A stretch of 64,000 nt of DNA, taken from contig CALVLM010000011.1 in the NCBI GenBank assembly GCA_944338075.1, positions 403 through 64,402 on the forward strand, in the 5' to 3' direction. Positions 1-43,075 of this stretch are shown one piece after another; position 1 is the stretch's first letter, and the number at the start of each line of letters is the position of its first letter. The notes below the pieces were generated by a model. The model saw only the letters and a program-made list of their open reading frames with translations. It did no database searches and was not told the DNA's origin. Source of the stretch: Candidatus Gallimonas intestinigallinarum. GTDB lineage: Bacteria; Bacillota; Clostridia; Christensenellales; Borkfalkiaceae. The translations under genes were made by a program, and so were the position numbers.

Positions 1-559
1 CGGGATAGGCAGGCATCTCCCAAGGATTATCCTCGGGGGATGTCTTTGTATATTTGAAGAAAATTTGGATCTTATCGTCGAACACGACGATTTTCTCGAT
101 CAAAGCGCGGATCAGCCGCCTTGGTGCCTGACGGAGCGGATCTGTCAGGTAGCTGATGACTTTGTCTTTTGTCAGGCGGTTTTGATGTTTGCACTGTTCT
201 ATGGCGATCTTGTCGTCGATCTCACTGCGCCGCTGTTCGAGTTCGTCCATGCGCGTCTTGGTCGTCTCATTGAAGATGCCTCGTTCGATCGCCTTCATGA
301 TGTTTGCAAGCGAGCGTGTCACTTCTTCCCTGTCGCGCTCTAAAAGCTGCAAGACGGATTGATCGCTCTTTCGTCTCTCATTGATGCGCATGATTTCATC
401 TGCAATCTTTTCAGTTGTCGCTTTGTCTCCAAAGAGTTGGCAGACGATGCCGATTACAAATTGCTCAACCTCGATTCCATGGTAAAAGACCCAAGTAACG
501 ATTTGCTTGGGTCTAAATTTTTTTGTGCCGTAATTTAAGTAAAAATTCTTTGATTTGTC
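1..559 (-). pseudogene. 3' fragment of a large serine recombinase gene. Only the C-terminal region is present. There is no start codon and no resolvase domain, and the 3' end runs off the left edge.
   Basis: Minus-strand translation reads YHGIEVEQFVIGIVCQLFGDKATTEKIADEIMRINERRK..ANIMKAIERGIFNETTKTRMDELEQRRSEIDDKIA..LIRALIEKIVVFDDKIQIFFKY. This is the coiled-coil/C-terminal pattern of large serine recombinases. The frame is closed upstream by TGA at 560-562 with no Met in between. Confidence 0.55.
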
Positions 560-886
560 TCAAATGACACTATAGGGAAAGATCTGAGGTATGGTTTTGA
601 AGAATTCATCCGAGAGGGACTTCAATTTTTGCAATAAGACAGAGACCTCTTTTACAGTGTAAGGTATAATAAAAAATTCTGTCAAAGAAATTTCAAGGGC
701 GTCACAAATCATACAAACCGTTTGTAATGTTGGCAGTCTGTGGTATTTGCGCGATTTATACAGTGTATCGACAGAAATATCGGCGGAGAGACAAAGCCGA
801 TACAATGACCAGTTTCGATTATTCAGAAAAAAATTTAATCGGTCAAAAAATGTTTCGCTTGTCCAGAAGCTGCAGTTATTTATCAT
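560..886 (-). CDS. XRE/Cro-C1 family helix-turn-helix transcriptional regulator
   Basis: 108-aa ORF with an HTH_3-like core (WSLYRLCLSADISVDTLYKSRKYHRLPTLQTVCMICDALEISLTEFF). It is divergent from the recombinase across an AT-rich intergenic region. Confidence 0.7.
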   Translation of the reverse strand: MINNCSFWTSETFFDRLNFFLNNRNWSLYRLCLSADISVDTLYKSRKYHRLPTLQTVCMICDALEISLTEFFIIPYTVKEVSVLLQKLKSLSDEFFKTIPQIFPYSVI

Positions 887-1002
887 TGTGACGCCTCCTA
901 AATTTTATCATGTGTAAGAAAAATATCTGATAAAAAGCATGCTTTTCAGTATAAATATATTATAGAACAGAATGGATATTATGATAAAATAACACATAGT
1001 GA

Positions 1003-2823
1003 ATGGACGATATCAGAGGCGATGTAAGGATGGATGAATATCGGGAGGCGGACAAAAATCAAACGGCAGAGTTGAATGCGTATTATATTCCGGCGAGAGC
1101 GAAAGAGGAAATTTACCAAAATACAAAAATTCGTGTATGCGCCTATTGCAGAGTATCCACGGACAGTGATGCACAGTCAACGTCATTTGTTTTGCAAAGA
1201 GAACATTATCAGAATTTAACGAATGCGCATCCTAATTGGATCCTGAAACATATTTATGCGGACGAGGGAATATCAGGGACGTCATTGAAAAGACGGGATG
1301 AATTTAATAAAATGATTGCTGCGTGCAGAGCGGGGGAATACGACCTAATCGTTACAAAATCGGTTTCGCGCTTTGCAAGGAATTTGGTCGATTGCATATC
1401 TTTGGCGAGAGAACTGAAAAATCAGAATCCTCGCGTCGGAATTTATTTTGAAACAGACGGTCTCAATACTCTGATGGAGGATTCCGAATTGAGACTTTCG
1501 ATCCTGGCTTCATTTGCGCAGGAAGAATCGGTCAAAAAGAGCGAAAGCATGGTCTGGTCTCTCAAAGAGCGTTTTAAGAATAAAAAGTTACTTACTCCAG
1601 AATTATATGGGTATCGTCGGCCGCGAGATGCCGGAGGGCATTTCATAAAAGGGGATGCTCTTGAAATAGATACGTCTGAGGCGGCGGTAGTGAAATTTAT
1701 ATACGATTCCTTTTTGGCGGGCAGTTCCACGGAAAATATTTCAGCGACGCTGACTGACTTGGGGATCCCGACAAAAATCGGAAACCCAAAATGGAGTGCG
1801 GGTTCTGTCAATTATATACTACGCAACGAAAGGTATTGCGGAAGTGTATTGACATGGAAAACATTTACCTACGATATTTTTGAACATAAAAAGCGGAAGA
1901 ACAAAAAAGACCGTGATCAGTATTTATATAAGGCACATCATCCTGCCATTGTGACGGTGGAACAATATGAGGCCGTTCAGACTCTTTTGGATGCAAAACA
2001 CAAAGGCATGAGGGGTGGACTGCATTATATGCATGTTGTCGATGAAGGCATATTTCGTGGATACGTTCCGATCGATCATCGATGGATCAATGATGATCCG
2101 GATATCTATTTTCAAGCGTCGGAGAGCGTGCAGGAGGACAAAAGAGAAAGATTGGTAAGGCGGTCCTGTTTCAGTCACTTTGATTTATCGGGATATCAGG
2201 TGGTGCGCGGTCAATACCTTACCGCAAGGTCGGAGCTTCCGGGGATGAGTATATTTGAAAACAGAATCGTATTTAACAGTTCGTGCGGGAACAAATTAAA
2301 AAATTTTTCTTATATACAACTTCTGTTGCATCCAACTGAACGAAAAATGGCGATCAGACCTTGCGGGCAAAACGATGTTTTTAGTATATATTGGAATACG
2401 AAGAAAGTTTCATTGAATAAAACGATATTTTGCCCCTATTTCGGGAAGGCCTTGTTTCGGATTATGGAGTGGGATCCGGAATTTCACTATAGAGTATTCG
2501 GAACGTGGATAAAAAAAGATGACGACTGTATCATGATATTCAATTTAACGGAATCAGTGCCCTTCATTTCTTATAAGGAAAACAGTTCAAATAAAAAGAG
2601 GGAAACGGCGGTATGCCCCGAAGGGTGGGACGATACGTTCGGAGAAGAGTTTTACCACTTCAGTCTTGAAAACAATTTATATTACAGCCGCGAAAAGGCC
2701 GGTTGGAACAGTCGGACCGAATGTAAATGTATTGAAGAACATCCTGCCGTTCGCATCATGTCCCCGATGGAGTTAAAGGAATGTGCGGCGGGATTAAAAC
2801 GGAAAACGGAGCAGCTCGAATGA
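1003..2823 (+). CDS. Atypical large serine recombinase: resolvase catalytic domain, recombinase domain and a non-canonical C-terminal domain
   Basis: Catalytic-Ser motif VCAYCRVSTDSD, then ADEGISGTS..DLIVTKSVSRFARN and a recombinase-domain-like YGYRR..NYILRNERYCG. No CxxC zinc ribbon or long coiled coil is visible after it. An alternative start is Met10 at 1030. Confidence 0.85.
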   Translation: MDDIRGDVRMDEYREADKNQTAELNAYYIPARAKEEIYQNTKIRVCAYCRVSTDSDAQSTSFVLQREHYQNLTNAHPNWILKHIYADEGISGTSLKRRDEFNKMIAACRAGEYDLIVTKSVSRFARNLVDCISLARELKNQNPRVGIYFETDGLNTLMEDSELRLSILASFAQEESVKKSESMVWSLKERFKNKKLLTPELYGYRRPRDAGGHFIKGDALEIDTSEAAVVKFIYDSFLAGSSTENISATLTDLGIPTKIGNPKWSAGSVNYILRNERYCGSVLTWKTFTYDIFEHKKRKNKKDRDQYLYKAHHPAIVTVEQYEAVQTLLDAKHKGMRGGLHYMHVVDEGIFRGYVPIDHRWINDDPDIYFQASESVQEDKRERLVRRSCFSHFDLSGYQVVRGQYLTARSELPGMSIFENRIVFNSSCGNKLKNFSYIQLLLHPTERKMAIRPCGQNDVFSIYWNTKKVSLNKTIFCPYFGKALFRIMEWDPEFHYRVFGTWIKKDDDCIMIFNLTESVPFISYKENSSNKKRETAVCPEGWDDTFGEEFYHFSLENNLYYSREKAGWNSRTECKCIEEHPAVRIMSPMELKECAAGLKRKTEQLE

Positions 2824-3413
2824 AGGAAGAATACTGCCGAATGATACCGGAAGAGGAAGAACAAGAGACGGTAAGTCTGGCCGGGTATCAGGTTGCAAAG
2901 GCTGAATTGTTTGCCCATACGCGTGAACCGGCAATAACCGTCTGGCAAAATAAAATCAAGTTCAATATGGCGTGCCTTCGCAGGTTCCCGGGCGTGAAGT
3001 ACATACAGCTTTTAATTCATCCGGAAGAACTACGGTTGATTGTGCGACCGTGCGAAGCAGATGCCCCCGACTCGCTGCGTTGGGCAAATGGAGGAGGGGA
3101 AAAGGAAATAAAAAACCGTGATATGATCTGCCAGATATTCGCTGCAAAACTATTCGATCTCATGTCCTGGCAGAAGGAATATCGCTATAAAATGCTTGGC
3201 AAGCCGGCAGTTTACAAAAATGAGGCGCTATATTTGTTTAAATTGACAGATTTTGAATTGTTTGTCAATAACGGAACAAAAAAACAGAGATCATGGCTGC
3301 CTGAAGATTGGCGCGAGTGTTTCGGCGTCCCGTTTGAACGGCACGATGATTCATACAAGATAAATTTAGCGGAAGGCTATATTACAACAAATAAAATGGG
3401 AGGATCGAGATGA
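2820..3413 (+). CDS. Hypothetical protein, paralog of the recombinase C-terminal domain (copy 2)
   Basis: ATGA overlap with the recombinase stop. GYQVAKAELF..ITVWQNKIKFN..YIQLLIHPEELRLIVRPC..YRYKMLG aligns with recombinase residues ~395-520. The track ORF 2781 is an upstream alternative-start extension. Confidence 0.7.
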   Translation: MKEEYCRMIPEEEEQETVSLAGYQVAKAELFAHTREPAITVWQNKIKFNMACLRRFPGVKYIQLLIHPEELRLIVRPCEADAPDSLRWANGGGEKEIKNRDMICQIFAAKLFDLMSWQKEYRYKMLGKPAVYKNEALYLFKLTDFELFVNNGTKKQRSWLPEDWRECFGVPFERHDDSYKINLAEGYITTNKMGGSR

Positions 3414-3838
3414 ACGACGCACTGATCAACGAAATTGATCTGGACGGATATCAGATTGTAAGAAGTCAGTACTTTCAAAAACAGTCTGAACCGGTAATAA
3501 CTCTATTTCAAACAGCGCTTGCTTTCGGGCAGGGCACGTTTCAGGCACTCAATAACTGCGAGGCGATCCAAGTGTTGCTCAATCATCGCGGCAGGAGTAT
3601 TGTGATACGTCCGGTATCATCCAATACGCCCGATGCAGTCATGTGGAAAAAGCGTGCGGAACCGAAGTATACGAAGATCGAATGCCCGCAGCTTACGCGC
3701 AACATTTATGAGCGGTGGGGATTGGATAAGAAATGTCATTATCGGGCTTTTGGTAAAACGGTGCAAGCGGATAAAAAAATACTGATATTATTTGATTTTA
3801 CCGATCCGGTCGTATATGAAGGATTGAAAAGGGTATAG
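3410..3838 (+). CDS. Hypothetical protein, same paralog family (copy 3)
   Basis: ATGA overlap with the preceding gene. Carries GYQIVRSQYF..ITLFQTALAFG..AIQVLLNHRGRSIVIRPV..HYRAFG. Confidence 0.7.
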   Translation: MNDALINEIDLDGYQIVRSQYFQKQSEPVITLFQTALAFGQGTFQALNNCEAIQVLLNHRGRSIVIRPVSSNTPDAVMWKKRAEPKYTKIECPQLTRNIYERWGLDKKCHYRAFGKTVQADKKILILFDFTDPVVYEGLKRV

Positions 3839-3841
3839 ACC

Positions 3842-4195
3842 ATGCCAAACGATACAGCGTATGTTTCATTTTATATGAGGAGCAATACCATACGGATTTT
3901 TAAGAATACAATACGAGCGATGGGGTCTCCTAAATTTATCAGATTACGTATCCACGATAGAGAGAAAACGATCATTATAGAGCCCTATGACAGAAGCACA
4001 TTTTCGTCGTTCCGAGTGCCTTTGCCGCTGAATGCGGCAAAGGAAGGATTGGATATTCACAGTAAGCTTTTTATCCGAATTGTTGCGAAGCGTATGCGGT
4101 GGGATATGGAACGGACATACCGGGTGTCCGGAGAATTATACGAAAGGCAGGGAATTGTAAAATTAGATCTGGTGCGAGCCGTAAAAATATCGTGA
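3842..4195 (+). CDS. Hypothetical protein, divergent member of the same paralog family (copy 4)
   Basis: Starts 3 nt after the previous stop. Carries IRIFKNTIRAM..FIRLRIHDREKTIIIEPY..TYRVSG. The last AT-rich gene before the GC-rich flank. Confidence 0.6.
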   Translation: MPNDTAYVSFYMRSNTIRIFKNTIRAMGSPKFIRLRIHDREKTIIIEPYDRSTFSSFRVPLPLNAAKEGLDIHSKLFIRIVAKRMRWDMERTYRVSGELYERQGIVKLDLVRAVKIS

Positions 4196-4357
4196 ATGCT
4201 TTCGATGTCAATCACTTCACGGTGCGTAGTGCTGCGGCACGCGTTAGCCCGCCCGGAAGGGCCTCGGGGAAAACGATCACGATTGGCGCGAAGCATTCTG
4301 CGCAGGGAGTGCAAGTATATTTTTTCAAAATTTTTCTCCCAAAGTGCGCAAAAACAG

Positions 4358-4386
4358 TTGCAAAGCCTTTGCGGATATGCTATAAT
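4358..4386 (+). promoter_or_regulatory. Sigma-70-type promoter for tRNA-Glu
   Basis: TTGCAA (4358-4363), 17-nt spacer, TATAAT (4381-4386). It lies 18 nt upstream of the tRNA 5' end. Confidence 0.5.
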
Positions 4387-4403
4387 AACAAAGCTTTTGA
4401 CGA

Positions 4404-4478
4404 GGCCTTGTGGTCAAGCGGTTAAGACGGCGCCCTCTCACGGCGCAATCCCGGGTTCGATTCCCGGCAAGGTCACCA
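4404..4478 (+). tRNA. tRNA-Glu (anticodon CUC) with encoded CCA
   Basis: The cloverleaf can be read directly. Acceptor stem is GGCCTTG/CAAGGTC (one G-U pair). Anticodon stem is GCGCC/GGCGC with loop CTCTCAC, giving CTC at 4437-4439. T arm is CCGGG-TTCGATT-CCCGG, and the 3' end is CCA. The sequence closely resembles Firmicute tRNA-Glu. Confidence 0.9.
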
Positions 4479-4717: not shown

Positions 4718-5989
4718 TTATTTTGTCAATTCAAAGATCGCCTGTTTGTATACGTTCAGGAGGAGTCTGACCCGCTCCAGCGTGATATATTCGTCCGCCT
4801 GGTGTACGACGGGCTCGTCGTCTGCCATCTCGGGACCGAACGCCACGCCGCATTTCAATGCCCGCGCGTATGTACCGCCGCCGATTGCGATGGGCTCCGC
4901 CTGCGTGTGCGTGCAGTTCTCGTAGGTCTTGAGCAGCGTCTGCACCAGCGCGCTGTTTTTTTCCTGCATCAGCGGCGCCTGATGGTGCAGCGTCTCAAAT
5001 TTGACGCCGATTTTTTTCAGCTTTTCCACGACGTCCGCATAGGGGACGGTCGCGGGGTAGCGGATATCGCAGATGACCTGAAGTTCACCCTTGCGGAATT
5101 TGATGATATCGGGCGAAAGGGTGAGCCTGCCTGTCTCGTCCGCAAGTTCGGTAAGTCCGCAGGCATCGCGGAACAGGCAGTCGATCACCTTTTTTACGTC
5201 CGCGCTCTTGTTTTCAAAAAAGGTGAGAATGGGCAGGATGGCGTTCTTGCCCAGTTCGGGCGTCGAACCGTGCGCGGATTTGCCGTACGCGATGATCTTT
5301 TTGCCCTTGATCTCCAGTCCCAGTTCGCGGGCGCGCGTGACGGTGAGCGTGCGCGGCGTCGCAGAGCATTCTGCGCACACCATGTTGACGCTCGTTCCGC
5401 CCGACAGGTAGCTGAAGGGGGGATTTTTTACGGGGAAGTGCAGCCGCACATGCAGAATTCCCTTTTCCGCATAGATGACGGGGAAACTCCCGTCGGGTGA
5501 GAAGCCCTCTTCGGGCATCGTGGAGACCTCGTTGAAGTGGCCGATGCAGCCCCAGCCGGCCTCTTCGTTGCACCCAAGCAGAAAACGGATGCGCTTTTTG
5601 GGCACAAAGCCCTCGTCCTTGAGCTGCTTCATGGCGTATAAGACGCAGAAGGCAGGACCTTTGTCGTCCATCGCGCCGCGTCCCCAGATCTTATCGTCTG
5701 AAACTTCGCCGCCGAAGGGATCCTTTGTCCAGCCGCTGCCCGCGGGCACGACGTCCAGATGCGCAAGTATGGCAAACTCCGCAGGACCTGTGCCGAAGGT
5801 CACTTCGCCGATGTAGTTGTCATAATTATGTGTTTCAAACCCCAAATCCTGCGCGAGGGAAAGGAAGTGTGCAAGACAGTTCGCCGCGCCCTTGCCAAAC
5901 GGCATTGCCGGCGTCGGGTCTTTGAGAGAGGAATCGAAACGGATGCTCTCGGAGATACTCTTTACGGTTTGCTCAAAACAATCAGTCAT
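4718..5989 (-). CDS. M20 family metallopeptidase (PepV/Sapep-like dipeptidase)
   Basis: 423 aa with AILAHLDVVPAG..W..DPF and WGRGAMDDKGP metal-site motifs. GGAGAAG Shine-Dalgarno sequence upstream. Confidence 0.85.
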   Translation of the reverse strand: MTDCFEQTVKSISESIRFDSSLKDPTPAMPFGKGAANCLAHFLSLAQDLGFETHNYDNYIGEVTFGTGPAEFAILAHLDVVPAGSGWTKDPFGGEVSDDKIWGRGAMDDKGPAFCVLYAMKQLKDEGFVPKKRIRFLLGCNEEAGWGCIGHFNEVSTMPEEGFSPDGSFPVIYAEKGILHVRLHFPVKNPPFSYLSGGTSVNMVCAECSATPRTLTVTRARELGLEIKGKKIIAYGKSAHGSTPELGKNAILPILTFFENKSADVKKVIDCLFRDACGLTELADETGRLTLSPDIIKFRKGELQVICDIRYPATVPYADVVEKLKKIGVKFETLHHQAPLMQEKNSALVQTLLKTYENCTHTQAEPIAIGGGTYARALKCGVAFGPEMADDEPVVHQADEYITLERVRLLLNVYKQAIFELTK

Positions 5990-6183
5990 ACAGCTTCTCC
6001 AATCAATTTCAATTCATTATACTCCTTGTAAAATGAGTTGTCAAGTATTTGCCGTATTTCGATTGTTTTGCGGGTGGGCAGAAAGCGGGTTTTTATCGAT
6101 TTCTTTGAATTTACGAGAGAAATTTAATGCTTTTTTGATGCAAAGCTCAGAAAAATATGATACAATAGCAATAAGGTGGAATT

Positions 6184-15687: not shown

Positions 15688-15699
15688 CAAAAAACAGCT

Positions 15700-15727
15700 G
15701 CGCCCGCGCGAATTCTCGCGCGGGCGC
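15700..15727. terminator. GC-rich hairpin in the convergent glgP/ridA gap
   Basis: 12-bp stem GCGCCCGCGCGA / TCGCGCGGGCGC. The T run is on the minus-strand side only. Confidence 0.5.
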
Positions 15728-15746
15728 AATGATCATATAATAAAAG

Positions 15747-15780
15747 CCGCGCCGTTTCGCATTTGTGCGAAACGGCGCGG
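15747..15780. terminator. Second hairpin terminator in the glgP/ridA gap
   Basis: 15-bp stem CCGCGCCGTTTCGCA / TGCGAAACGGCGCGG with a 4-nt loop. Confidence 0.55.
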
Positions 15781-15796
15781 TTGCTATTTCATCACT

Positions 15797-16171
15797 TCAG
15801 TCGCAAAGGGCGATGACTTCGATCTCGGCAAGTACGTTCTTGGGGAGTGTCCTGACGGCGACGCAGCTTCTGGCGGGCTTGCCCGTGAAGTAACTGCCGT
15901 AGACCTCGTTGAATGCCGCAAAGTCCGCCATGTCGGCTAAAAAGCAGGTCGTCTTGACGACTTTTTCCAGAGAGCTTCCCGCTGCCGCAAGCACGGCTTT
16001 GAGGTTCTCGCAGATGCGCGTCGTCTGCTCCCTGATGCCGCCCTCGACGACGGCGCCCGTCTCGGGGACGAGTGCGATCTGTCCGGACGTAAAGACCATT
16101 CCGTTTGCCTTGACCGCCTGGGAATAGGGTCCGATGGCGGCGGGGGCGAGAGGGGTGTGTACGGTTTGCAT
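15797..16171 (-). CDS. ridA: RidA/YjgF family reactive-intermediate deaminase
   Basis: 124 aa. Carries [38 protein letters not shown]. Confidence 0.92.
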
Positions 16172-16186
16172 ATTGATACCTCCTGA

Positions 16187-17392
16187 TCAGAGCGTCTCGC
16201 AGAGCTTGAAGCCCGCGTCTGTCAACGCCTTTTTGATTTCATTGATCTGTGCGAAGTCGCGCGTCTCCATGTCGATGCGCAGGTAGCAGCCGATGACCTC
16301 GCTGCCTGCGTTGGCATGTTCGTGGTGGACGCCGACGACGTTCGCGCCGCACTTTGCAATGATCTGTGATACGGCGACGAGCTGCCCGGGCTTGTCCAGA
16401 AGCTCGATGTTCAGCGTGCACTGTCTGCCGCTCGTCACAAGTCCGCGCGTGATGACGCGGCTCAAGATGGTGACGTCGATATTGCCGCCCGAGACGAGGC
16501 AGCACACCTTCTTGCCGTCCAGCTGGGGGAGTTTGCCCGCCATGATGGCGGCAACGGGCGTCGCGCCCGCGCCCTCGGCGACCAGCTTCTCCTTTTCGAT
16601 GAGTGCGAGGATGGCGGTGCAGATCTCGTCCTCGGTGACGGTGACAACGCCGTCGACGTACTCCTTGCAGTATTGGAAGGTGTGCTCGCCCGGTTGCTTG
16701 ACGGCGATGCCGTCCGCGATCGTCGAGACGGAGTCAAGACATTCGATCTTGCCGTCTTTGAGCGAGAGAGCCATGCTGGGCGCGCCCGCCGCCTGTACGC
16801 CGTACACCTGCACATGGGGTGCAAGGTGCTTGATTGCAAACGCGACGCCCGCGATCAGCCCGCCGCCGCCGATGGGCACGACAACCGCGTCCACGCCCGA
16901 AAGCTGGGACAAGATCTCCATGCCGATGGTCGCCTGACCCGCGATGACGTCCTCGTCGTCAAAGGGGTGGATGAAAGTGTAGCCGTACTCCTTTTGCAGC
17001 TCGACCGACTTCTGGTATGCGTCGTCATACACGCCGTGCACGAGGCAGATATCCGCCCCGTAGCTGCGCGTCGCCTCTACCTTGGAGATGGGCGCGCCGT
17101 CGGGCAGGCAGATGAGCGCCTTGATGCCGTTCTTCTGCGCCGCGAGCGCGACGCCCTGCGCGTGGTTGCCTGCCGAGCAGGCGATGACGCCCCGCGCCTT
17201 TTCCTCGGATGAGAGCTGCGAGATTTTATAATACGCGCCCCTGATCTTGAAGGAGCCCGTCTTTTGCAGGTTCTCTGCCTTGATGAACAGCTCGCAGCGG
17301 TCGGTGAGCTTGCTTGTGGGCATGATGTCCGTTTCGTAGAGCGCTTCTTTCAGGACGCTCTGTGCATGTCTGATCTTATCGAGTGTAAGCAT
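16187..17392 (-). CDS. ilvA: Threonine ammonia-lyase (PLP-dependent, C-terminal ACT-like domain)
   Basis: PLP lysine motif QKTGSFKIRGA and a GGGGL loop. The start was moved to Met12 (17392), because the track start at 17425 lies immediately downstream of the -10 hexamer. Confidence 0.9.
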   Translation of the reverse strand: MLTLDKIRHAQSVLKEALYETDIMPTSKLTDRCELFIKAENLQKTGSFKIRGAYYKISQLSSEEKARGVIACSAGNHAQGVALAAQKNGIKALICLPDGAPISKVEATRSYGADICLVHGVYDDAYQKSVELQKEYGYTFIHPFDDEDVIAGQATIGMEILSQLSGVDAVVVPIGGGGLIAGVAFAIKHLAPHVQVYGVQAAGAPSMALSLKDGKIECLDSVSTIADGIAVKQPGEHTFQYCKEYVDGVVTVTEDEICTAILALIEKEKLVAEGAGATPVAAIMAGKLPQLDGKKVCCLVSGGNIDVTILSRVITRGLVTSGRQCTLNIELLDKPGQLVAVSQIIAKCGANVVGVHHEHANAGSEVIGCYLRIDMETRDFAQINEIKKALTDAGFKLCETL

Positions 17393-17427
17393 TCTGTTCC
17401 TCTGAACGCATAGATTGCGTAACAAAA

Positions 17428-17456
17428 ATTATACGCCCATTGCGGGCGTTTGTCAA
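17428..17456 (-). promoter_or_regulatory. Consensus promoter of ilvA-ridA
   Basis: Minus strand reads TTGACA (17456-17451), 17-nt spacer, TATAAT (17433-17428). Confidence 0.6.
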
Positions 17457-17518
17457 TCATTTGCAGGCCCTGTACCTTTCACGCGGCGAATGGGCGCAAT
17501 CGGTGTCATGCATTACGC

Positions 17519-17530
17519 GGGGGGGGGGGG
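17519..17530. repeat. G12 homopolymer between divergent promoters
   Basis: Twelve consecutive G, counted directly in the sequence. Confidence 0.95.
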
Positions 17531-17571
17531 AAGGGCGCCTCTTCCCGCGGTGTAAAAATATATAGCGGGTA

Positions 17572-17600
17572 TTGACAAATCATGGGGGGGGGGTTATAAT
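17572..17600 (+). promoter_or_regulatory. Perfect-consensus promoter of the fused ABC transporter, with a G10 tract inside the spacer
   Basis: TTGACA (17572-17577), 17-nt spacer, TATAAT (17595-17600). Spacer positions 17584-17593 are G10. Confidence 0.65.
17584..17593. repeat. G10 homopolymer (simple-sequence contingency-type tract)
   Basis: Ten consecutive G, counted directly in the sequence. Confidence 0.95.
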
Positions 17601-17678
17601 AGAGAGGTGCTTCAGACTTTAGAAAAGTGTGGCGTTACGGTTATAGCCGGAAGTATATGAAAAAACAGGAGAAGGAAT

Positions 17679-20405
17679 ATGATCGAATTGCGCAACGTAT
17701 CAAAGACGTATCGTCCTAAGAAGGGAGTGCCCGTGCAGGCGTTGAAGAACGTCTCCGTCACGTTTCCCGATCGCGGGATGTATTTTATCCTCGGGCGTTC
17801 GGGGAGCGGCAAGACGACCGCGTTGTATCTGCTCGGCGGGCTGGACGCGTGCACCGAAGGCGATCTGTTGGTCGACGGGAAATCGACCAAGCACTTTTCG
17901 CAGAAAGATTGGGACGCCTATCGGAACCGGGAGGTCGGATTTGTCTTTCAGGACTACAATCTGTTCGAGCGCTTCAATGTAGTACAGAATGTCTCCCTCG
18001 CCTCGGAACTGCAAGGGGAAAAGCGGGATGACGGGCGGGTTGCGCAGGTCCTGCGGGCGGTCGGCATGGAGGGCTACGAAAAGCGCGCGCCCAAAGAGCT
18101 TTCGGGCGGTCAGCAACAGCGCGTTGCCGTTGCCCGCGCGCTCATCAAGGACCCTTCCGTCCTGCTTGCGGACGAGCCGACGGGTGCGCTCGACGAAAAG
18201 ACGGGCGAAGAGCTGTTCGGGCTTCTCAAAGAGCTGTCCAAACAAAAGCTGGTCATCGTCGTCTCGCACGATCGGGATTTTGCCGAAAAATACGGCGACG
18301 GGATCCTGGAGTTTGCAGACGGCGAGGTCATCCGCGACACCGTCAGCGGCGCCGCGGCAAACGAGCGCCGCGATCAGGACGGGGAAGCGGCAAAACACAC
18401 TGTCCGTTCCAGACGGCGGGGGCTGGGGATCGCTTCCCGCCTGCGCCTGTCCGCGAAGGGGCTTGTGCAGCATCCCGTGCGCATGGTCGTCACGATCTTT
18501 CTGGCGATGATCTGTTTTGCGCTTGCGGCATTTACCAACAGCGTTTCTTCCTATGATCGGGACGAGGTCATCCTGCGCTCCATGCGGGAGGCGGGCGTCT
18601 CCTACATCGGCTTCGGGATCAATACCTCCATTGTGTCGGATAACAGCGGCGGGAGCCCTTATGAATGGGGCCGCTGGACGCTGCAGGACGAAGCAAACTT
18701 TATCGAGCGAACAGGCGCGGAACGGATCGACTATGCGCTCTCCGATTTGCAGGACGAGTATGCGTCGCCCGAAGAGGTCTTTTTTACGGGCGGGCTTCCG
18801 CTGAAAGAAGGGATGATGGAGCTGTATGGGCTGCGCCTTCTCGGCGGCAGGCTGCCGGAGATTGTTTCGGGCGATGCACCGCAGGAGGTCGCGATCTCGG
18901 AATTTATCTTCCGCAAATTTGTCGAACAGGGGTATGAGGAATACGCGTATCGGACCGATCTTCCCTATGGGGACGGCACGGGTTACGCTCTGACGGGGCG
19001 CGTGCTTCCTGTTTCCGAATATGACGATCTGCTCGGGCAGGTGCTGCTCATCGGGGGGCATTGCTATACCGTCGTCGGGATCCTTGACACGGGCTACGAC
19101 TTTGAGCGCTACGGCGACCTCGACGAGAACGACCCCATGTCGGAAGAGCTGCACAAAGAGTCGATCACGGGCGAATTGCTGCAGCTGCACCGCATTGCCT
19201 TCCTGTGCGGCGACTACGAGGATCTCGTTTCGTTCGGGCTGGAACACTTTGTTTCCTTTCAGTCCTGGAGGAGCATGACGGGGACCATGGATGGCAATCA
19301 GGACGACTGGGTTTCGCTGGACGGCGTCGGATCACACCCCGCCGAGGATCTGACGATCTGGTATCGCGACGGCGCAAGGGAGCTTGGGGAGTCGGATGTG
19401 TTGCTTCCGTTGTCTGTTTTGTCGGAATTTGACGATCGTCAGACCCTGAACGAGATCAGGATGCGATACATCCGTGAATTCGCAGAGGAACATGCTGCGC
19501 AGACCGATCTCAATACGGAGGCTTATATCGATTATATCATTTCGACGGAGTTCGGCGAAAACAACTATCACCCGGGATACAACTTCGCATATTTCGACCG
19601 CCTTGCCCTGTTGGAGCTTGCGCAGGACGAGACCGTGTTCGACCGCTTTGAAACCATCACGCTGGATCTGGCGGGATATGTGTTTGAAGATATGAATATC
19701 GTCGGCTATTACGATAATACGCAGCTGCCTGCGCGGGAGGAATGGCCGGCGGTCGTCCTCTGTCAGGAAGAACTGGTGCTCTATATGGACGGGCTGAGCG
19801 GTACGGAGCAGTATTCCATGCTGTTTGTGCCGCTCACGGGCGATGATGCGCGCGACGCAAGGCTGCTGAATGACATGATTCTCATGGCGGTCGACGGCGT
19901 ATCGTACACGACGCTTTCGTTTACGGGCGGCAGGCAGCTGATTTCGGGCAATGTGCAGATCACTTCCGTGCAACACTCGCATAATCTCCTGCGCACCTTT
20001 GCCAATTTGTTTGTCTGGGTTTCGGTCGGATTCGCCGTGTTCGCCTGCGTCATGTTCTTTAACTATATCCATGCCAGCATTACGGGGCGGCAGCGGGAGA
20101 TCGGCATTTTCCGAAGCATGGGGGCAAGTAAGAAGGACGTGTTCCTGCTCTTCTTCGGGGAAAGCATTCTCATCGCGTTGCTGAGTGCGGTGTTCGCGAT
20201 CGTTCTGTTTGCGGCAGCGGTTGCGGGATTCAATTTCTATATGCAGACTGCGCTTCTCCTTCCCATCACGCTTCTCTCTGTCCAAGCGGTGCAGATCGTC
20301 CTGATCGTCGGTCTGAGCGCGGCGGTCGCGCTGCTTGCGACATTTCTTCCCTGCTACATCAATTCGCGGAAAAAGCCCATTGACGTCATCCGCAGTGCGT
20401 TTTGA
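17679..20405 (+). CDS. Fused ABC transporter, MacB/FtsX type: ATPase, large extracytoplasmic domain and FtsX permease
   Basis: Walker A GRSGSGKTT, signature LSGGQQQRVAVARAL and Walker B LLADEPTGALD. These are followed by a TM helix, a ~470-aa acidic domain and a C-terminal FtsX-like 3-TM block. AGGAGAAGG Shine-Dalgarno sequence. Confidence 0.9.
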   Translation: MIELRNVSKTYRPKKGVPVQALKNVSVTFPDRGMYFILGRSGSGKTTALYLLGGLDACTEGDLLVDGKSTKHFSQKDWDAYRNREVGFVFQDYNLFERFNVVQNVSLASELQGEKRDDGRVAQVLRAVGMEGYEKRAPKELSGGQQQRVAVARALIKDPSVLLADEPTGALDEKTGEELFGLLKELSKQKLVIVVSHDRDFAEKYGDGILEFADGEVIRDTVSGAAANERRDQDGEAAKHTVRSRRRGLGIASRLRLSAKGLVQHPVRMVVTIFLAMICFALAAFTNSVSSYDRDEVILRSMREAGVSYIGFGINTSIVSDNSGGSPYEWGRWTLQDEANFIERTGAERIDYALSDLQDEYASPEEVFFTGGLPLKEGMMELYGLRLLGGRLPEIVSGDAPQEVAISEFIFRKFVEQGYEEYAYRTDLPYGDGTGYALTGRVLPVSEYDDLLGQVLLIGGHCYTVVGILDTGYDFERYGDLDENDPMSEELHKESITGELLQLHRIAFLCGDYEDLVSFGLEHFVSFQSWRSMTGTMDGNQDDWVSLDGVGSHPAEDLTIWYRDGARELGESDVLLPLSVLSEFDDRQTLNEIRMRYIREFAEEHAAQTDLNTEAYIDYIISTEFGENNYHPGYNFAYFDRLALLELAQDETVFDRFETITLDLAGYVFEDMNIVGYYDNTQLPAREEWPAVVLCQEELVLYMDGLSGTEQYSMLFVPLTGDDARDARLLNDMILMAVDGVSYTTLSFTGGRQLISGNVQITSVQHSHNLLRTFANLFVWVSVGFAVFACVMFFNYIHASITGRQREIGIFRSMGASKKDVFLLFFGESILIALLSAVFAIVLFAAAVAGFNFYMQTALLLPITLLSVQAVQIVLIVGLSAAVALLATFLPCYINSRKKPIDVIRSAF

Positions 20406-20417
20406 GCGCCTGACAAA

Positions 20418-20448
20418 CAAAAAGACGGCAGCGTGTTGCCGTCTTTTT
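20418..20448. terminator. Bidirectional terminator between the ABC transporter and GDPD genes
   Basis: Stem AAAGACGGCA / TGCCGTCTTT, flanked by A and T runs. Confidence 0.75.
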
Positions 20449-20451
20449 GCA

Positions 20452-21192
20452 TTATGCAAGGAAATGTTCGAAGATGATGTTGTCGACGTACGGCTTGAGG
20501 CGATCCGCTTCCTCCTGCGAGCGCACCGTCCAGGCGAGTTTTGTTTTGGGGTACGACGTCAAAGCGGGCGAGGGGTAGTCCTCGGCGCGGTAGCTTAAAA
20601 AGTCCAGCTTTTCTGCCCAGCGGAGGCTCATATTCCTGACCGCAAACGCCTTGATGCGCCACACGGGCGAGCCGTCGAAGTCGGACTTTTTCATTGCTTC
20701 GCCCGAGCCTAAAATGCCGCAGGCGATTTCGGGGCAGAGCTTTTTGTACGCCCGTACATAGGCGGGCTGGAAGGACTGCACGGCGTATTCGCCGGAAAAA
20801 GTGCGCATCGCCTCGTGTACGGCGCGTGCCACCGTGTCCGCGGGGACACCGGGCATGTCCTTGATCTCAAGAAGAAGGGGCGCACGGCCGGAAAGGCAGG
20901 CGAGCGCGTCCTGAAAGAGGGGGATGCGCTGCTCGCTCCCTGCAAGGTGCAGCTTGGTAAGCTCGGCGGCGGTACATTCGGCGACGGCGCCCTCCTGCCC
21001 CGTCATGCGCGCGAGCAGGGCGTCGTGAAAGACGATCAGCTGCCGGTCTTTGGAAAAGTGCACGTCCGTCTCGACGGCATACCCATGCCGTATGGCGTTT
21101 TCAAATGCCGCAAGACTGTTTTCGGGATACCTTTCATCGTGCAGGCCGCGGTGCGCGATGGGCGTGTGCGTGAGAAAATCGGGAAGTTTCAT
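20452..21192 (-). CDS. Glycerophosphodiester phosphodiesterase family protein
   Basis: MKLPDFLTHTPIAHRGLHDERYPENSLAAFENAI..ETDVHFSKDRQLIVFHD (GDPD HR..EN..E.D motifs). Only the last 246 codons of the track ORF 20452-22140 are coding. The remainder is antisense to lepA. Confidence 0.85.
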   Translation of the reverse strand: MKLPDFLTHTPIAHRGLHDERYPENSLAAFENAIRHGYAVETDVHFSKDRQLIVFHDALLARMTGQEGAVAECTAAELTKLHLAGSEQRIPLFQDALACLSGRAPLLLEIKDMPGVPADTVARAVHEAMRTFSGEYAVQSFQPAYVRAYKKLCPEIACGILGSGEAMKKSDFDGSPVWRIKAFAVRNMSLRWAEKLDFLSYRAEDYPSPALTSYPKTKLAWTVRSQEEADRLKPYVDNIIFEHFLA

Positions 21193-40323: not shown

Positions 40324-41454
40324 TCAGGAGAGCTTTGTGATGCTCACGCCGTCCTCAATGGTCGTATCGTAGAAGGATGCCTCATAGCCGACTGCCTCCC
40401 TGTACGCCTTTCCGACGTTCTCGCGGAAGGCGTCCGTCTTGCCCTTTTCCACAAGGCTGATGGTGCAGCCGCCAAAGCCCGCGCCGATCATGCGCGAGGC
40501 GATGCAGCCCTCCTGTGCCCGCGCCGCGTAGGCGAGCGCATCAGGCTCCCTGCCTGTTACCTCGTAGAGCTTGGAGAGACTGTCGTGCGAGGCGTTGATG
40601 AGCCTGGCGAGCGTCTCGATCTTGCCCGCCTTGAGCGCCTCCGCTGCCTCTGCGACGCGTGCACATTCATAGACGACGTGCGTTGCGCGGTCGAGGATCT
40701 TGCCGCTCAGAACGTGCTTGGCGCGCTCGAACATGTCGGGCGTAAGGTCGGCAAGACAGCTGATCGAGGGGTACACCTGTTGCAGCTGTTCCAGCGCGCG
40801 CTCCACTTCGGCGCGGCGCTCGTTGTACTTGCTCTCCACAAGGGCATGCGGCTTGTTGCAGTTGGCGACGATGAGCTCGTAGTTTCCAAGATCGAGGGGG
40901 ATATACTCATAGTCCAGCGTCTTGCAGTCGAGCAGGATGGCGTGATCCTTCTTGCCCATTGCCGAGGCAAACTGGTCCATGATGCCGCAGTTGACGCCGC
41001 AGTACTCGTTCTCCGCCTTCTGCGAGAGGAGGGCGACTTGCTTCAAATCGGGCGTCTCGCCCGCAACGGTCGCGAGGGCAACCATCGTGCTGACCTCGAT
41101 GGCGGCGGAGGAGGACAGCCCGCTGCCGAAGGGGACGGAGCAGTCCTGCAAAATGTCGCATCCGACGAGTTTGTGCCCCGCCTGCTGCCACATATAGGCG
41201 ACGCCCGCGGGATAGTCGGCATATTTCACCTTGCGGTAGTCGTTGAGCCGCCCGATCTCCAGCGAGATGCGCGCGGGGATGTCCGTCCACGCAAGGTTGA
41301 TGCGGTCGGTGCCGTTGGGACGGATGTAGACGGTGTTTTTAAGCGAGAGCGCCGCGGGCATGACCTTGCCGCCGCAGTAGTCGATGTGCTCCCCGATGAG
41401 GTTGATGCGCCCTGCCGCCGAGACGGCATACATGAACTGTTTTTCATTTTCCAT
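40324..41454 (-). CDS. galK: Galactokinase
   Basis: GRINLIGEHIDYCGG signature and the GHMP motif PFGSGLSSSAA. Confidence 0.95.
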   Translation of the reverse strand: MENEKQFMYAVSAAGRINLIGEHIDYCGGKVMPAALSLKNTVYIRPNGTDRINLAWTDIPARISLEIGRLNDYRKVKYADYPAGVAYMWQQAGHKLVGCDILQDCSVPFGSGLSSSAAIEVSTMVALATVAGETPDLKQVALLSQKAENEYCGVNCGIMDQFASAMGKKDHAILLDCKTLDYEYIPLDLGNYELIVANCNKPHALVESKYNERRAEVERALEQLQQVYPSISCLADLTPDMFERAKHVLSGKILDRATHVVYECARVAEAAEALKAGKIETLARLINASHDSLSKLYEVTGREPDALAYAARAQEGCIASRMIGAGFGGCTISLVEKGKTDAFRENVGKAYREAVGYEASFYDTTIEDGVSITKLS

Positions 41455-42916
41455 AGGTGAAACCTGCCTTGTGGATGAGGAATTGTGCCGTGTCCGAGGG
41501 GGCCTCGAAGACGGCGGTATTTTTCAGGATACGGCTGCATACGCTCGCCAGCTCCGTCTTGACTGCTTCGTGCGCCGATTGCGGCGTAAAGGCGGGGGAC
41601 ATTGCCTTCATCTCCGCAAAGAGCATCGCGTAGTCTGCGTACTGCTCCGGCAGAGGCGCGCCCGATATAAGGAGCGCTTCGAGGTCGGCAAGTTCATGCA
41701 CCAGCCGTCCGGGGAGAATGAACAGCCCCTGTGCCTCGATGAGCCCGATGGACTCCTTCTTGATGACGTGGAACTCCGGGTGCGCATGGAACACGCCGTC
41801 CGGGTATTGCGCCGAGGTGATATTGCTGCGCAGGATGAGATTCATTTCGTAGCCGTTTTGCGTCTTGATGACGGTCGGGCTGACGGCGTGGTGTACGCCG
41901 TCGCCGTCAACGGGGATGAGCCCGCGCGCGGCGTCCTCGTAGGCGCACCATGCCTCGCGCACGCGCTCGGAGAGGTCCGCGATCTGGTCGGCATTCTTTC
42001 CGCTGAGGCGCACCGCCGTGCCCTGCCAGTCAATGACGCCCGCCCTGATTTCCGGAAAGTCGGGATGGGAGAGCGGGACGGCGATGGAGGCGCGGTGCAG
42101 CGGAAGCACTTCGCCGCCGCCCTGGTAGTGGTCGTGGGCGAGCACGCTGCCGCCGATGCGCGGCAGGGGCGCGTTGCAGCCGATGAAGTAGTGCGGGAAC
42201 AGGTCGACAAACTGCATGAGCCGGACAAAGGTGTCCCTGTCGACGTGCATGGGGATGTGCTTTTGATTGACGGCGATGCCGTGCTCGTGGAAGTAGCCGT
42301 AGGGGGAGAACTGCCAGAACCACGGTTCCCCGCCAAGCTCCAGCGAGACGGTGCGCAGCGTGCATTTGTTGCGCCCGACAAATCCCTCGTTCTCGCGGCA
42401 GATCGTGCAGGCGGGATAGCCGCCCCTGACGCTGTTGCCGCTCGCCGCCTTTTTGGGGTCGCGGAATTCGGGCTTTGCGCAGTTGATCGTGACGATCAGC
42501 CCGTTCTCTGCCGTAAAGCGGGGGTTGGCGTCCAGTTTCTTCTTTTTGACGTAGTCGGCGTGCACGCAGTAGTCGTACAGCCACCTCGTCGCCTCGGCGG
42601 AGGAGACGCGCATGTGCGCGGCAAATGCCTCTTCGACCGCCTCGGGGGAGAGCATCAGCGCGCCCATCACGCCGTCGGTGAGTCGCTCGGGCTGTTCGGC
42701 GGCGGGAAGCCCCGCTTCCGCGCAGGCATTGACCAGGTCGCTTAAGAGGTCGGAGACCTCCCGCCCGTCATAGACTGCGCCGCTGTCTTCGTAGCTCTGC
42801 GCGCCCACGAGTCCGAGTACGGTGTTGCGCGCATAGACCGCATTGCGCGACGAAAGTCCGAGTTTTTCGCGCGCATAGGCGATGAGTGCGTCGATTGCAT
42901 GAGATAGGTTGTTCAT
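41444..42916 (-). CDS. galT: Galactose-1-phosphate uridylyltransferase (type 2, Firmicute form)
   Basis: About 490 aa, with FSPYGYFHEHGIAVN and GGSVLAHDHYQGG. The start Met (MNNLSHAIDALI) at 42916 follows GGAGG. The track ORF extends to 43222. Confidence 0.9.
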   Translation of the reverse strand: MNNLSHAIDALIAYAREKLGLSSRNAVYARNTVLGLVGAQSYEDSGAVYDGREVSDLLSDLVNACAEAGLPAAEQPERLTDGVMGALMLSPEAVEEAFAAHMRVSSAEATRWLYDYCVHADYVKKKKLDANPRFTAENGLIVTINCAKPEFRDPKKAASGNSVRGGYPACTICRENEGFVGRNKCTLRTVSLELGGEPWFWQFSPYGYFHEHGIAVNQKHIPMHVDRDTFVRLMQFVDLFPHYFIGCNAPLPRIGGSVLAHDHYQGGGEVLPLHRASIAVPLSHPDFPEIRAGVIDWQGTAVRLSGKNADQIADLSERVREAWCAYEDAARGLIPVDGDGVHHAVSPTVIKTQNGYEMNLILRSNITSAQYPDGVFHAHPEFHVIKKESIGLIEAQGLFILPGRLVHELADLEALLISGAPLPEQYADYAMLFAEMKAMSPAFTPQSAHEAVKTELASVCSRILKNTAVFEAPSDTAQFLIHKAGFTYGK

Positions 42917-42945
42917 GATCGTTTGCCTCCGGGCAAATGGGGGGG

Positions 42946-42980
42946 GACAATGAGGCGATGATTCCGATCGCCTCATTGTC
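42946..42980 (-). promoter_or_regulatory. 14-bp perfect hairpin flanked by C runs in the galT 5' region
   Basis: GACAATGAGGCGAT / ATCGCCTCATTGTC with a 7-nt loop. A G8 run (42939-42946) and a G6 run (42988-42993) flank it on the plus strand. Confidence 0.35.
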
Positions 42981-43075
42981 AGGGGTTGGGGGGATTTTGA
43001 ATAGACAATCTTTGTGGCGGGATTTGCGCACGGCGAGCGATCTTCCGGCGCTGCTGCTCTTCTTTTCGCCCATAT

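Follow-up and report, generated by a model that had tools for sequence, protein, structure and literature searches.

A guanine tract of variable length within the promoter spacer of a MacB-like ABC transporter gene, a candidate promoter-strength dial in an uncultured gut Clostridia species

Across 44 sequences of one locus in an uncultured gut Clostridia species, a guanine tract that lies between the −35 hexamer and the −10 hexamer of a gene for a MacB-like ABC transporter varies from G7 to G10, and the spacing of the predicted promoter varies with it from 14 to 17 nt. We judge the chance to be somewhat better than even that this variation has functional meaning as a promoter-strength dial of the type represented by porA and tp0126. 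The locus was analyzed in a window of 64,000 nucleotides (the whole stretch of DNA considered here; positions are counted from its first letter). The features of the promoter region and its flanking genes are as follows.

15797-16171: ridA, located beyond ilvA.
16187-17392, minus strand: ilvA (threonine ammonia-lyase), divergent from the ABC gene.
17428-17456, minus strand: ilvA promoter, TTGACA-17-TATAAT, outside the inserted cassette; its 17-nt spacer (window 17433-17449) is almost all palindrome ACGCCCGCAATGGGCGT.
17519-17530, plus strand: upstream G12 tract, with 41 nt between it and the −35 hexamer.
17553-17564, plus strand: A/T block TAAAAATATATA, 8-19 nt 5' of the −35 hexamer; invariant in the alignment.
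17572-17577, plus strand: −35 hexamer, TTGACA; unchanged in 44 of 44 sequences.
17584-17593, plus strand: G10 tract within the 17-nt spacer (17578-17594); G7-G10 across contigs, with the following T present or lost.
17595-17600, plus strand: −10 hexamer, TATAAT; unchanged in 44 of 44 sequences.
17601-17678, plus strand: 5'-UTR of the ABC gene, with a predicted transcription start near 17607; indels in some lineages.
17667-17671, plus strand: ribosome-binding site AGGAG, 7 nt 5' of the ATG of the ABC gene.
17679-20405, plus strand: ABC gene, coding for a 908-aa MacB-like fused ABC ATPase/FtsX-type permease (Pfam, NCBIfam, AlphaFold2, and Foldseek).

The arrangement described in the earlier note (G12 tract, TTGACA, 17-nt spacer, G10 tract, TATAAT, and divergent ilvA promoter) was found on the sequence at exactly the positions it gave. 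The ABC promoter was identified by consensus and, in the window, matches it at 12 of 12 positions with a 17-nt spacer. A second promoter-like site was not found on the plus strand of the ABC/ilvA intergenic region, and because the upstream gene is divergent, read-through cannot supply transcription of the ABC gene. From its sequence, the TTGACA/TATAAT motif is therefore presumed to be the active ABC promoter, and the A/T block is a candidate UP element. The 5'-UTR has no riboswitch or leader known to Rfam, whether 17300-17800 is scanned by E-value or the whole window at the gathering threshold, and its fold is no better than those of shuffled sequences (z = −0.78).

The promoter of ilvA is the same in every contig with the ABC gene and is also present in a sister lineage that lacks it. 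In an outgroup, the same position reads TTGACA-17-TATACT. The palindrome ACGCCCGCAATGGGCGT in the ilvA spacer is kept in the sister lineage, is missing from the outgroup promoter, and may be an operator. Distant homologues of the ABC gene have sigma-A-like promoters. Together with conservation of the ilvA promoter position in the sister lineage and outgroup, this indicates that the consensus promoter type is used in the clade. No G tract was found upstream of the distant homologues (L019-L022) or of a homologue that is 44% identical (L062), whose promoters are AT-rich or whose operon context differs. The tract is thus specific to this cassette.

Homopolymers and paired perfect promoters exceed chance expectation in the window. 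There are three G/C runs of at least 7 nt in the 64 kb, two of which are in the ABC/ilvA intergenic region. Markov expectations per 64 kb are 0.07-0.12 for runs of at least 10 G and 0.005-0.01 for runs of at least 12 G. Likewise, three promoters match the consensus at 12 of 12 positions, relative to an expectation of ∼0.01 per 64 kb (our own arithmetic, from base composition alone), and two of the three face each other in this intergenic region. The third perfect TTGACA-17-TATAAT is at window positions 6016-6044 on the minus strand, before a gene for an M20-family peptidase (4718-5989, minus strand). This genome seems unusually rich in perfect consensus promoters.

The comparison set consists of the window and 43 independent metagenome contigs of the locus, which were found by exact-protein look-ups and one pattern scan in ENA metagenome assemblies, Logan assemblies, and a metagenome collection. 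The flanks of the spacer tract are nearly identical across the 44 sequences. The tract is G9 in 38 sequences (four of which lack the T before TATAAT), G8 in three, G7 in one, and G10 in two, the window and contig L031. Spacing between the hexamers is consequently 17 nt in two sequences including the window, 16 nt in 34 (77%; all G9), 15 nt in seven, and 14 nt in one. The earlier note had proposed that tract length be checked for invariance across isolates or metagenomes. Lengths of G7-G10 among 44 sequences are not invariant, and we therefore consider the spacer tract a true hot spot of mutation, one that resets the geometry of the promoter.

Changes in the spacer have occurred repeatedly. On a neighbor-joining tree of 2.37 kb of flanks in which the tracts were masked, spacer states require at least five independent changes. 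A group of seven contigs with an identical 908-aa ABC protein, whose sequences diverge at ∼10 sites or fewer over 4.27 kb, adds two G9-to-G8 events on different SNP backgrounds, for at least seven in all. Six of the seven events shorten the spacer and one lengthens it. Indels are otherwise few, with only ∼5 events over 2,359 columns of alignment outside the tracts.

The ABC gene and its promoter are located in a 2.9-kb insertion flanked by copies of its target sequence.

17509-17532: left copy of the target duplication, TGCATTACGC[G12]AA; it reads TGCATTACGCAAGGAA in seven contigs.
17533-20447, plus strand: lineage-specific insertion of 2,915 bp, with the UP-like A/T block, promoter, 5'-UTR, ABC gene, and a bidirectional terminator.
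20418-20449: bidirectional terminator hairpin CAAAAAGACGGCA / TGCCGTCTTTTTG, perfect and in the cassette; it also serves the convergent GDPD gene.
20448-20463: right copy of the target duplication, TGCATTATGCAAGGAA, which includes the GDPD stop codon (TTA, 20452-20454).

The sister lineage (L032-L041) is without the insertion, and in it the GDPD gene adjoins ilvA across an intergenic region of 121 bp. The outgroup (L079-L082; LepA 93% identical) is also without the ABC gene. Because the insertion is absent from both, it is the derived state. Comparison of the junctions shows that a 16-bp direct duplication, TGCATTAYGCAAGGAA, is present at both ends of the insert and as a single copy in the lineage lacking the ABC gene. 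The cassette begins GGGCGCCTCTTCCCGCGG... and ends ...GCCGTCTTTTT, and the terminator hairpin is missing from the lineage without it. We considered presence/absence of the cassette as strain-level variation and rejected it. The ilvA sequences of the lineage lacking the ABC gene are only ∼92% identical at the nucleotide level, so this lineage is a sister (sub)species.

The insert has a target-site duplication, as transposons and insertion sequences do, and otherwise none of the features expected of them. Terminal inverted repeats were not found in it, nor was a recombinase or transposase gene; the ABC gene is its sole open reading frame. Searches for further copies of the 16-mer TGCATTAYGCAAGGAA found none, and searches for the cassette on plasmids and phages returned only generic matches to the ATPase domain. 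The insert bears no hallmark of a known mobile element. One reading of these data is that the 2.9-kb unit represents a new kind of self-contained expression cassette, whose delivery would duplicate 16 bp of target sequence and leave behind, or seed, a homopolymer at the junction, such that the tract would belong to the unit by design and not by local accident. We regard this reading as improbable.

The upstream tract is part of the left copy of this duplication of 16 bp. It is G7 in 11 contigs, G8 in one, G9 in 23, and G12 in the window only, and at least six independent changes are required on the flank tree. In seven of 43 contigs, AAGG is in place of the homopolymer and both promoters are intact. 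These contigs carry the unmodified repeat ...CGCAAGGAA... and belong to at least three clades, with recombination or recurrence as candidate explanations. This G12 represents a second run prone to slippage, which arose at the insertion scar, in the left copy of the duplication. Since seven contigs have AAGG and intact promoters, it is dispensable. The suggestion in the earlier note that the G12 tract could modulate either divergent promoter is therefore unsupported: the AAGG contigs keep both promoters, and the lineage without the cassette keeps that of ilvA.

The predicted product of the cassette gene resembles MacB in architecture. Pfam domains are ABC_tran (residues 22-168) and FtsX (781-898). 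In an AlphaFold2 model (mean pLDDT of 79.7), the first transmembrane helix (TM1) spans residues ∼266-290, three further helices start from ∼759 (TM2 onward), and an extracytoplasmic domain of ∼470 aa lies between TM1 and TM2. Foldseek ranks MacB first among full-length matches (E=1e-29; target-normalized TM-score of 0.63-0.66). A MacB-like fused ABC transporter with an exposed domain of ∼470 aa, as had been proposed from the sequence, is thus borne out by Pfam, a sequence search of the PDB, AlphaFold2, and Foldseek.

Similarity to MacB has limits. The extracytoplasmic domain of MacB is ∼200 aa, which is much smaller than the ∼470 aa of the protein studied here. Both have an N-terminal nucleotide-binding domain (NBD), a four-helix FtsX-type domain, and an extracytoplasmic domain between TM1 and TM2 (PDB 5lj7 and 5nik), but sequence identity is 16%. 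Matches in sequence to solved structures cover essentially the ATPase, extending at most into the neighboring linker and TM1 of MacB (residues 2-309). The NCBIfam model for MacB (NF007826) scores 182 bits, far below its cut-off of 966, over residues 2-281, which correspond to the ATPase and the linker/first transmembrane segment. A gene for a MacA-like adaptor was not found beside the ABC gene. The protein therefore has the fused NBD/FtsX architecture of the MacB type (type VII) and has neither orthology to MacB nor an adjacent MacA-type adaptor. It is predicted to work like a mechanotransmission pump of the MacB family and is not MacB itself.

Patterns of variation indicate that the gene is functional. 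Across strains, pN/pS is 0.18, as expected under purifying selection. Two contigs have disrupted or shortened alleles. In L054, a 1-nt deletion (equivalent to window position 18385) splits the gene into open reading frames of 276 and 632 aa. We considered the frameshift as a second switch, based on a coding homopolymer, and rejected this because the deletion removed one A in GGGGAAGC, where there is no homopolymer. In L063, from a strain seen in two samples, an in-frame deletion removes 67 aa from the extracytoplasmic domain (equivalent to residues ∼552-620). When the ABC protein was compared with GTDB species representatives, no close orthologue turned up, and the best matches were segments 33-56% identical from metagenome-assembled genomes (MAGs) of other Clostridia. 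The next nearest homologue is the one that is 44% identical, in a different operon (L062, 2700-8639). It is downstream of genes for an ECF-like sigma factor and a 229-aa protein of unknown function and upstream of genes for Flg_new-repeat surface proteins. This context points, tentatively, to a link between the protein family and functions of the cell envelope.

The strength of sigma-70/SigA promoters depends on the spacing between the −35 and −10 hexamers. Spacings that range from 17 to 14 nt should therefore grade transcription from maximal to near-off. Under the mechanism we propose, the spacer tract (17584-17593) sits in what appears to be the sole recognizable promoter of the ABC gene, a consensus promoter of the sigma-A type. 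Slippage during replication would lengthen or shorten the tract and change the spacing, leaving the hexamers untouched, and lineages would inherit promoters of different strengths. The 17-nt spacing of the window is predicted to be maximal, the 16-nt spacing of most strains somewhat lower, and spacings of 15 and 14 nt weak to near-off. The difference in effect between 16 and 17 nt may be small. Slippage is the probable mutational mechanism of tract change, and by analogy to other bacteria, spacing is expected to alter expression of the ABC gene. Variation in the tract would then presumably matter to fitness.

On present sequences, the locus resembles a dial of promoter strength that mostly rests at one setting more than it resembles an ON/OFF switch, and any fast, reversible switching inside a population, the strict sense of phase variation, is conjectural. 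Dominance of G9 with 16-nt spacing (77%) is a narrower distribution than the usual spread at classic contingency loci. That six of seven events shorten the spacer and that some variants inactivate the gene hints at recurrent selection for lower expression; a bias of slippage toward deletion fits equally. The strains are all close relatives, and the tract's persistence among them is therefore uninformative on whether selection maintains it.

Mutability does not distinguish the spacer tract from other homopolymers in the window. The remaining G/C run of at least 7 nt served as a control.

42939-42946, minus strand: C8 on the galT strand, between a leader hairpin with a 13-bp stem and the ribosome-binding site.

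Across eight sequences, this run varies among C7, C8, and C9, at a rate comparable to that of the spacer tract. A nearby C6 run in the galT leader (∼42993-42998; galT is at 41444-42916, minus strand) varies between C6 and C7. Long G/C runs in this species vary wherever they are present. This undercuts the argument, made in the earlier note, that two long homopolymers so close together are unlikely to be neutral. Because the control varies as much, variability alone is generic, and from mutability by itself it does not follow that the variation is put to use. What sets the spacer tract of the ABC gene apart is its position, not its mutability.

The control data are the main support for an explanation in which the tracts are neutral hot spots: non-coding homopolymers drift by slippage, changes in spacing are incidental, 16 nt is adequate, and variants are neutral or mildly deleterious. 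All three G/C runs of at least 7 nt are non-coding in a window that is ∼91% coding, a distribution that is as expected if such runs are purged from coding DNA. Replacement of the upstream tract by AAGG in seven contigs with nothing else changed, and the prevalence of G9 in 38 of 44 sequences, are also consistent with neutrality. Set against these, the spacer tract is located exactly between two perfect hexamers, so each change in its length must alter promoter geometry. Its changes are mostly in one direction, with six shortenings relative to one lengthening, and the frameshift in L054 and in-frame deletion in L063 suggest recurrent selection on the amount of protein. We view a neutral explanation as possible, though rather doubtful.

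Two further explanations would place the effect of the tracts elsewhere or remove it. The first supposes that tract length tunes a DNA structure or the binding of a protein, not promoter spacing. The G12 tract followed by AAGGG could in principle provide the four G3 runs of a G-quadruplex, and tracts of the opc and fim types position regulators (PMC7864442). However, the common alleles (G9, G7, and AAGG) are unable to form the same quadruplex, and an intramolecular one would need a longer run than the spacer tract by itself. There is also no regulator gene in the cassette, and a search for a repeated operator-like motif found none. Such a role is unlikely. The second supposes that differences in length are miscalls and that the true locus is invariant. 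Several sequencing platforms make errors in long G runs, G12 is seen in the window alone, and both tracts of the window are the longest observed. One Logan contig (L030) ends within the tract, which is compatible with heterogeneity in the sample and equally with sequencing error; other Logan contigs (L071 and L076-L078) pass straight through it.

Conversely, tract states are consistent within clades and across methods. Sister contigs have variant states in common (L057, L060, and L061 are all G7; L052 and L055 lack the T, as do L004 and L018), and in one clade, ten contigs from different samples are all G9/G9. Several assemblers are concordant. G10 was recovered independently in L031, from the Logan assembly of run ERR4096379. 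Moreover, the third tract of the window is not inflated, as its C8 is equal in length to those of L064 and L069. We hold it highly improbable that the differences are artefacts. A strength dial, with the probability given at the outset, is the explanation we favor.

Homopolymers that set promoter spacing have precedents. According to PMC7864442, porA of Neisseria meningitidis has a poly-G tract between −35 and −10, an optimum of 17 nt, and graded expression. The likeness to the ABC locus is in a G homopolymer that sets the spacing of a sigma-70-type promoter and in a target that is an envelope protein. The two systems differ in that N. meningitidis is a Gram-negative pathogen and the species studied here is an uncultured commensal of the gut in the Clostridia, with a MacB-like ABC transporter as the target. 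They also differ in that here, one length dominates and variation is known from sequence differences between populations. In Treponema pallidum, tp0126 also has a poly-G tract between −35 and −10 and its transcription is optimal with a 17-nt spacing, and tprL has tracts of 7-11 G within isolates, with G9 dominant (PMC7864442). The range of tprL, G7-G11 with G9 dominant, is strikingly like that of G7-G10 with G9 dominant at the ABC locus. In Treponema, however, variation within isolates and effects on reporters were measured, whereas here the variation is between populations.

Relative to the promoter-spacer homopolymers of the porA/tp0126 class, the ABC locus has the tract within the −35/−10 spacer and differences in length between strains with conserved flanks. 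It does not have variability above that of tracts without a regulatory position. A different repeat is found in Haemophilus influenzae, in which TA repeats between hifA and hifB reportedly change −35/−10 spacing, as van Ham et al. are said to have described in 1993 (a study cited in PMC5084427). As in the ABC locus, a repeat tract in a divergent intergenic region alters spacing. But the hifA and hifB promoters overlap and share the repeat such that both genes switch together. In contrast, 115 bp separate the ilvA promoter from that of the ABC gene, the tract is in the ABC promoter only, and the ilvA promoter is kept in lineages without the cassette.

Most known cases of heritable variation in gut commensals, whether graded or on/off, involve invertible promoters and methyltransferase switches. 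To our knowledge, the documented cases of promoter control by repeat tracts are mainly from Gram-negative pathogens, mycoplasmas, and spirochaetes. The mechanism we propose is thus a known one, placed in a new organism (an uncultured species of gut Clostridia), on a new target (a MacB-like transporter), and in a new setting (a self-contained inserted cassette). If confirmed, the locus would be a case in which such a species tunes an envelope transporter by homopolymer slippage, and loci of this kind would be shown to be open to direct detection and genotyping in public metagenome assemblies. Because the ABC gene is a lineage-specific insertion that has been frameshifted once and deleted in frame once, it is a candidate target of fluctuating selection, which could be imposed by, for example, phage, bacteriocins, or the host.

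Other parts of the window also vary in composition and content. In positions 1-4475, the first ∼4 kb has a GC content of ∼42%, relative to ∼57% elsewhere in the window, includes a gene for a large serine recombinase (1003-2823) and small open reading frames without a Pfam match, and ends beside a tRNA gene (4404-4475). An integrated mobile element or prophage probably ends here. The neighborhood of ridA is rich in insertions and deletions. In the gap between ridA and the gene for glycogen phosphorylase (window 15688-15796), some strains have an open reading frame of 188 aa that has no Pfam match and is absent in the window. In other strains, different small open reading frames replace the glycogen phosphorylase gene (region variants in L001 5655-6221, L006 6040-7794, and L008 6772-7665).
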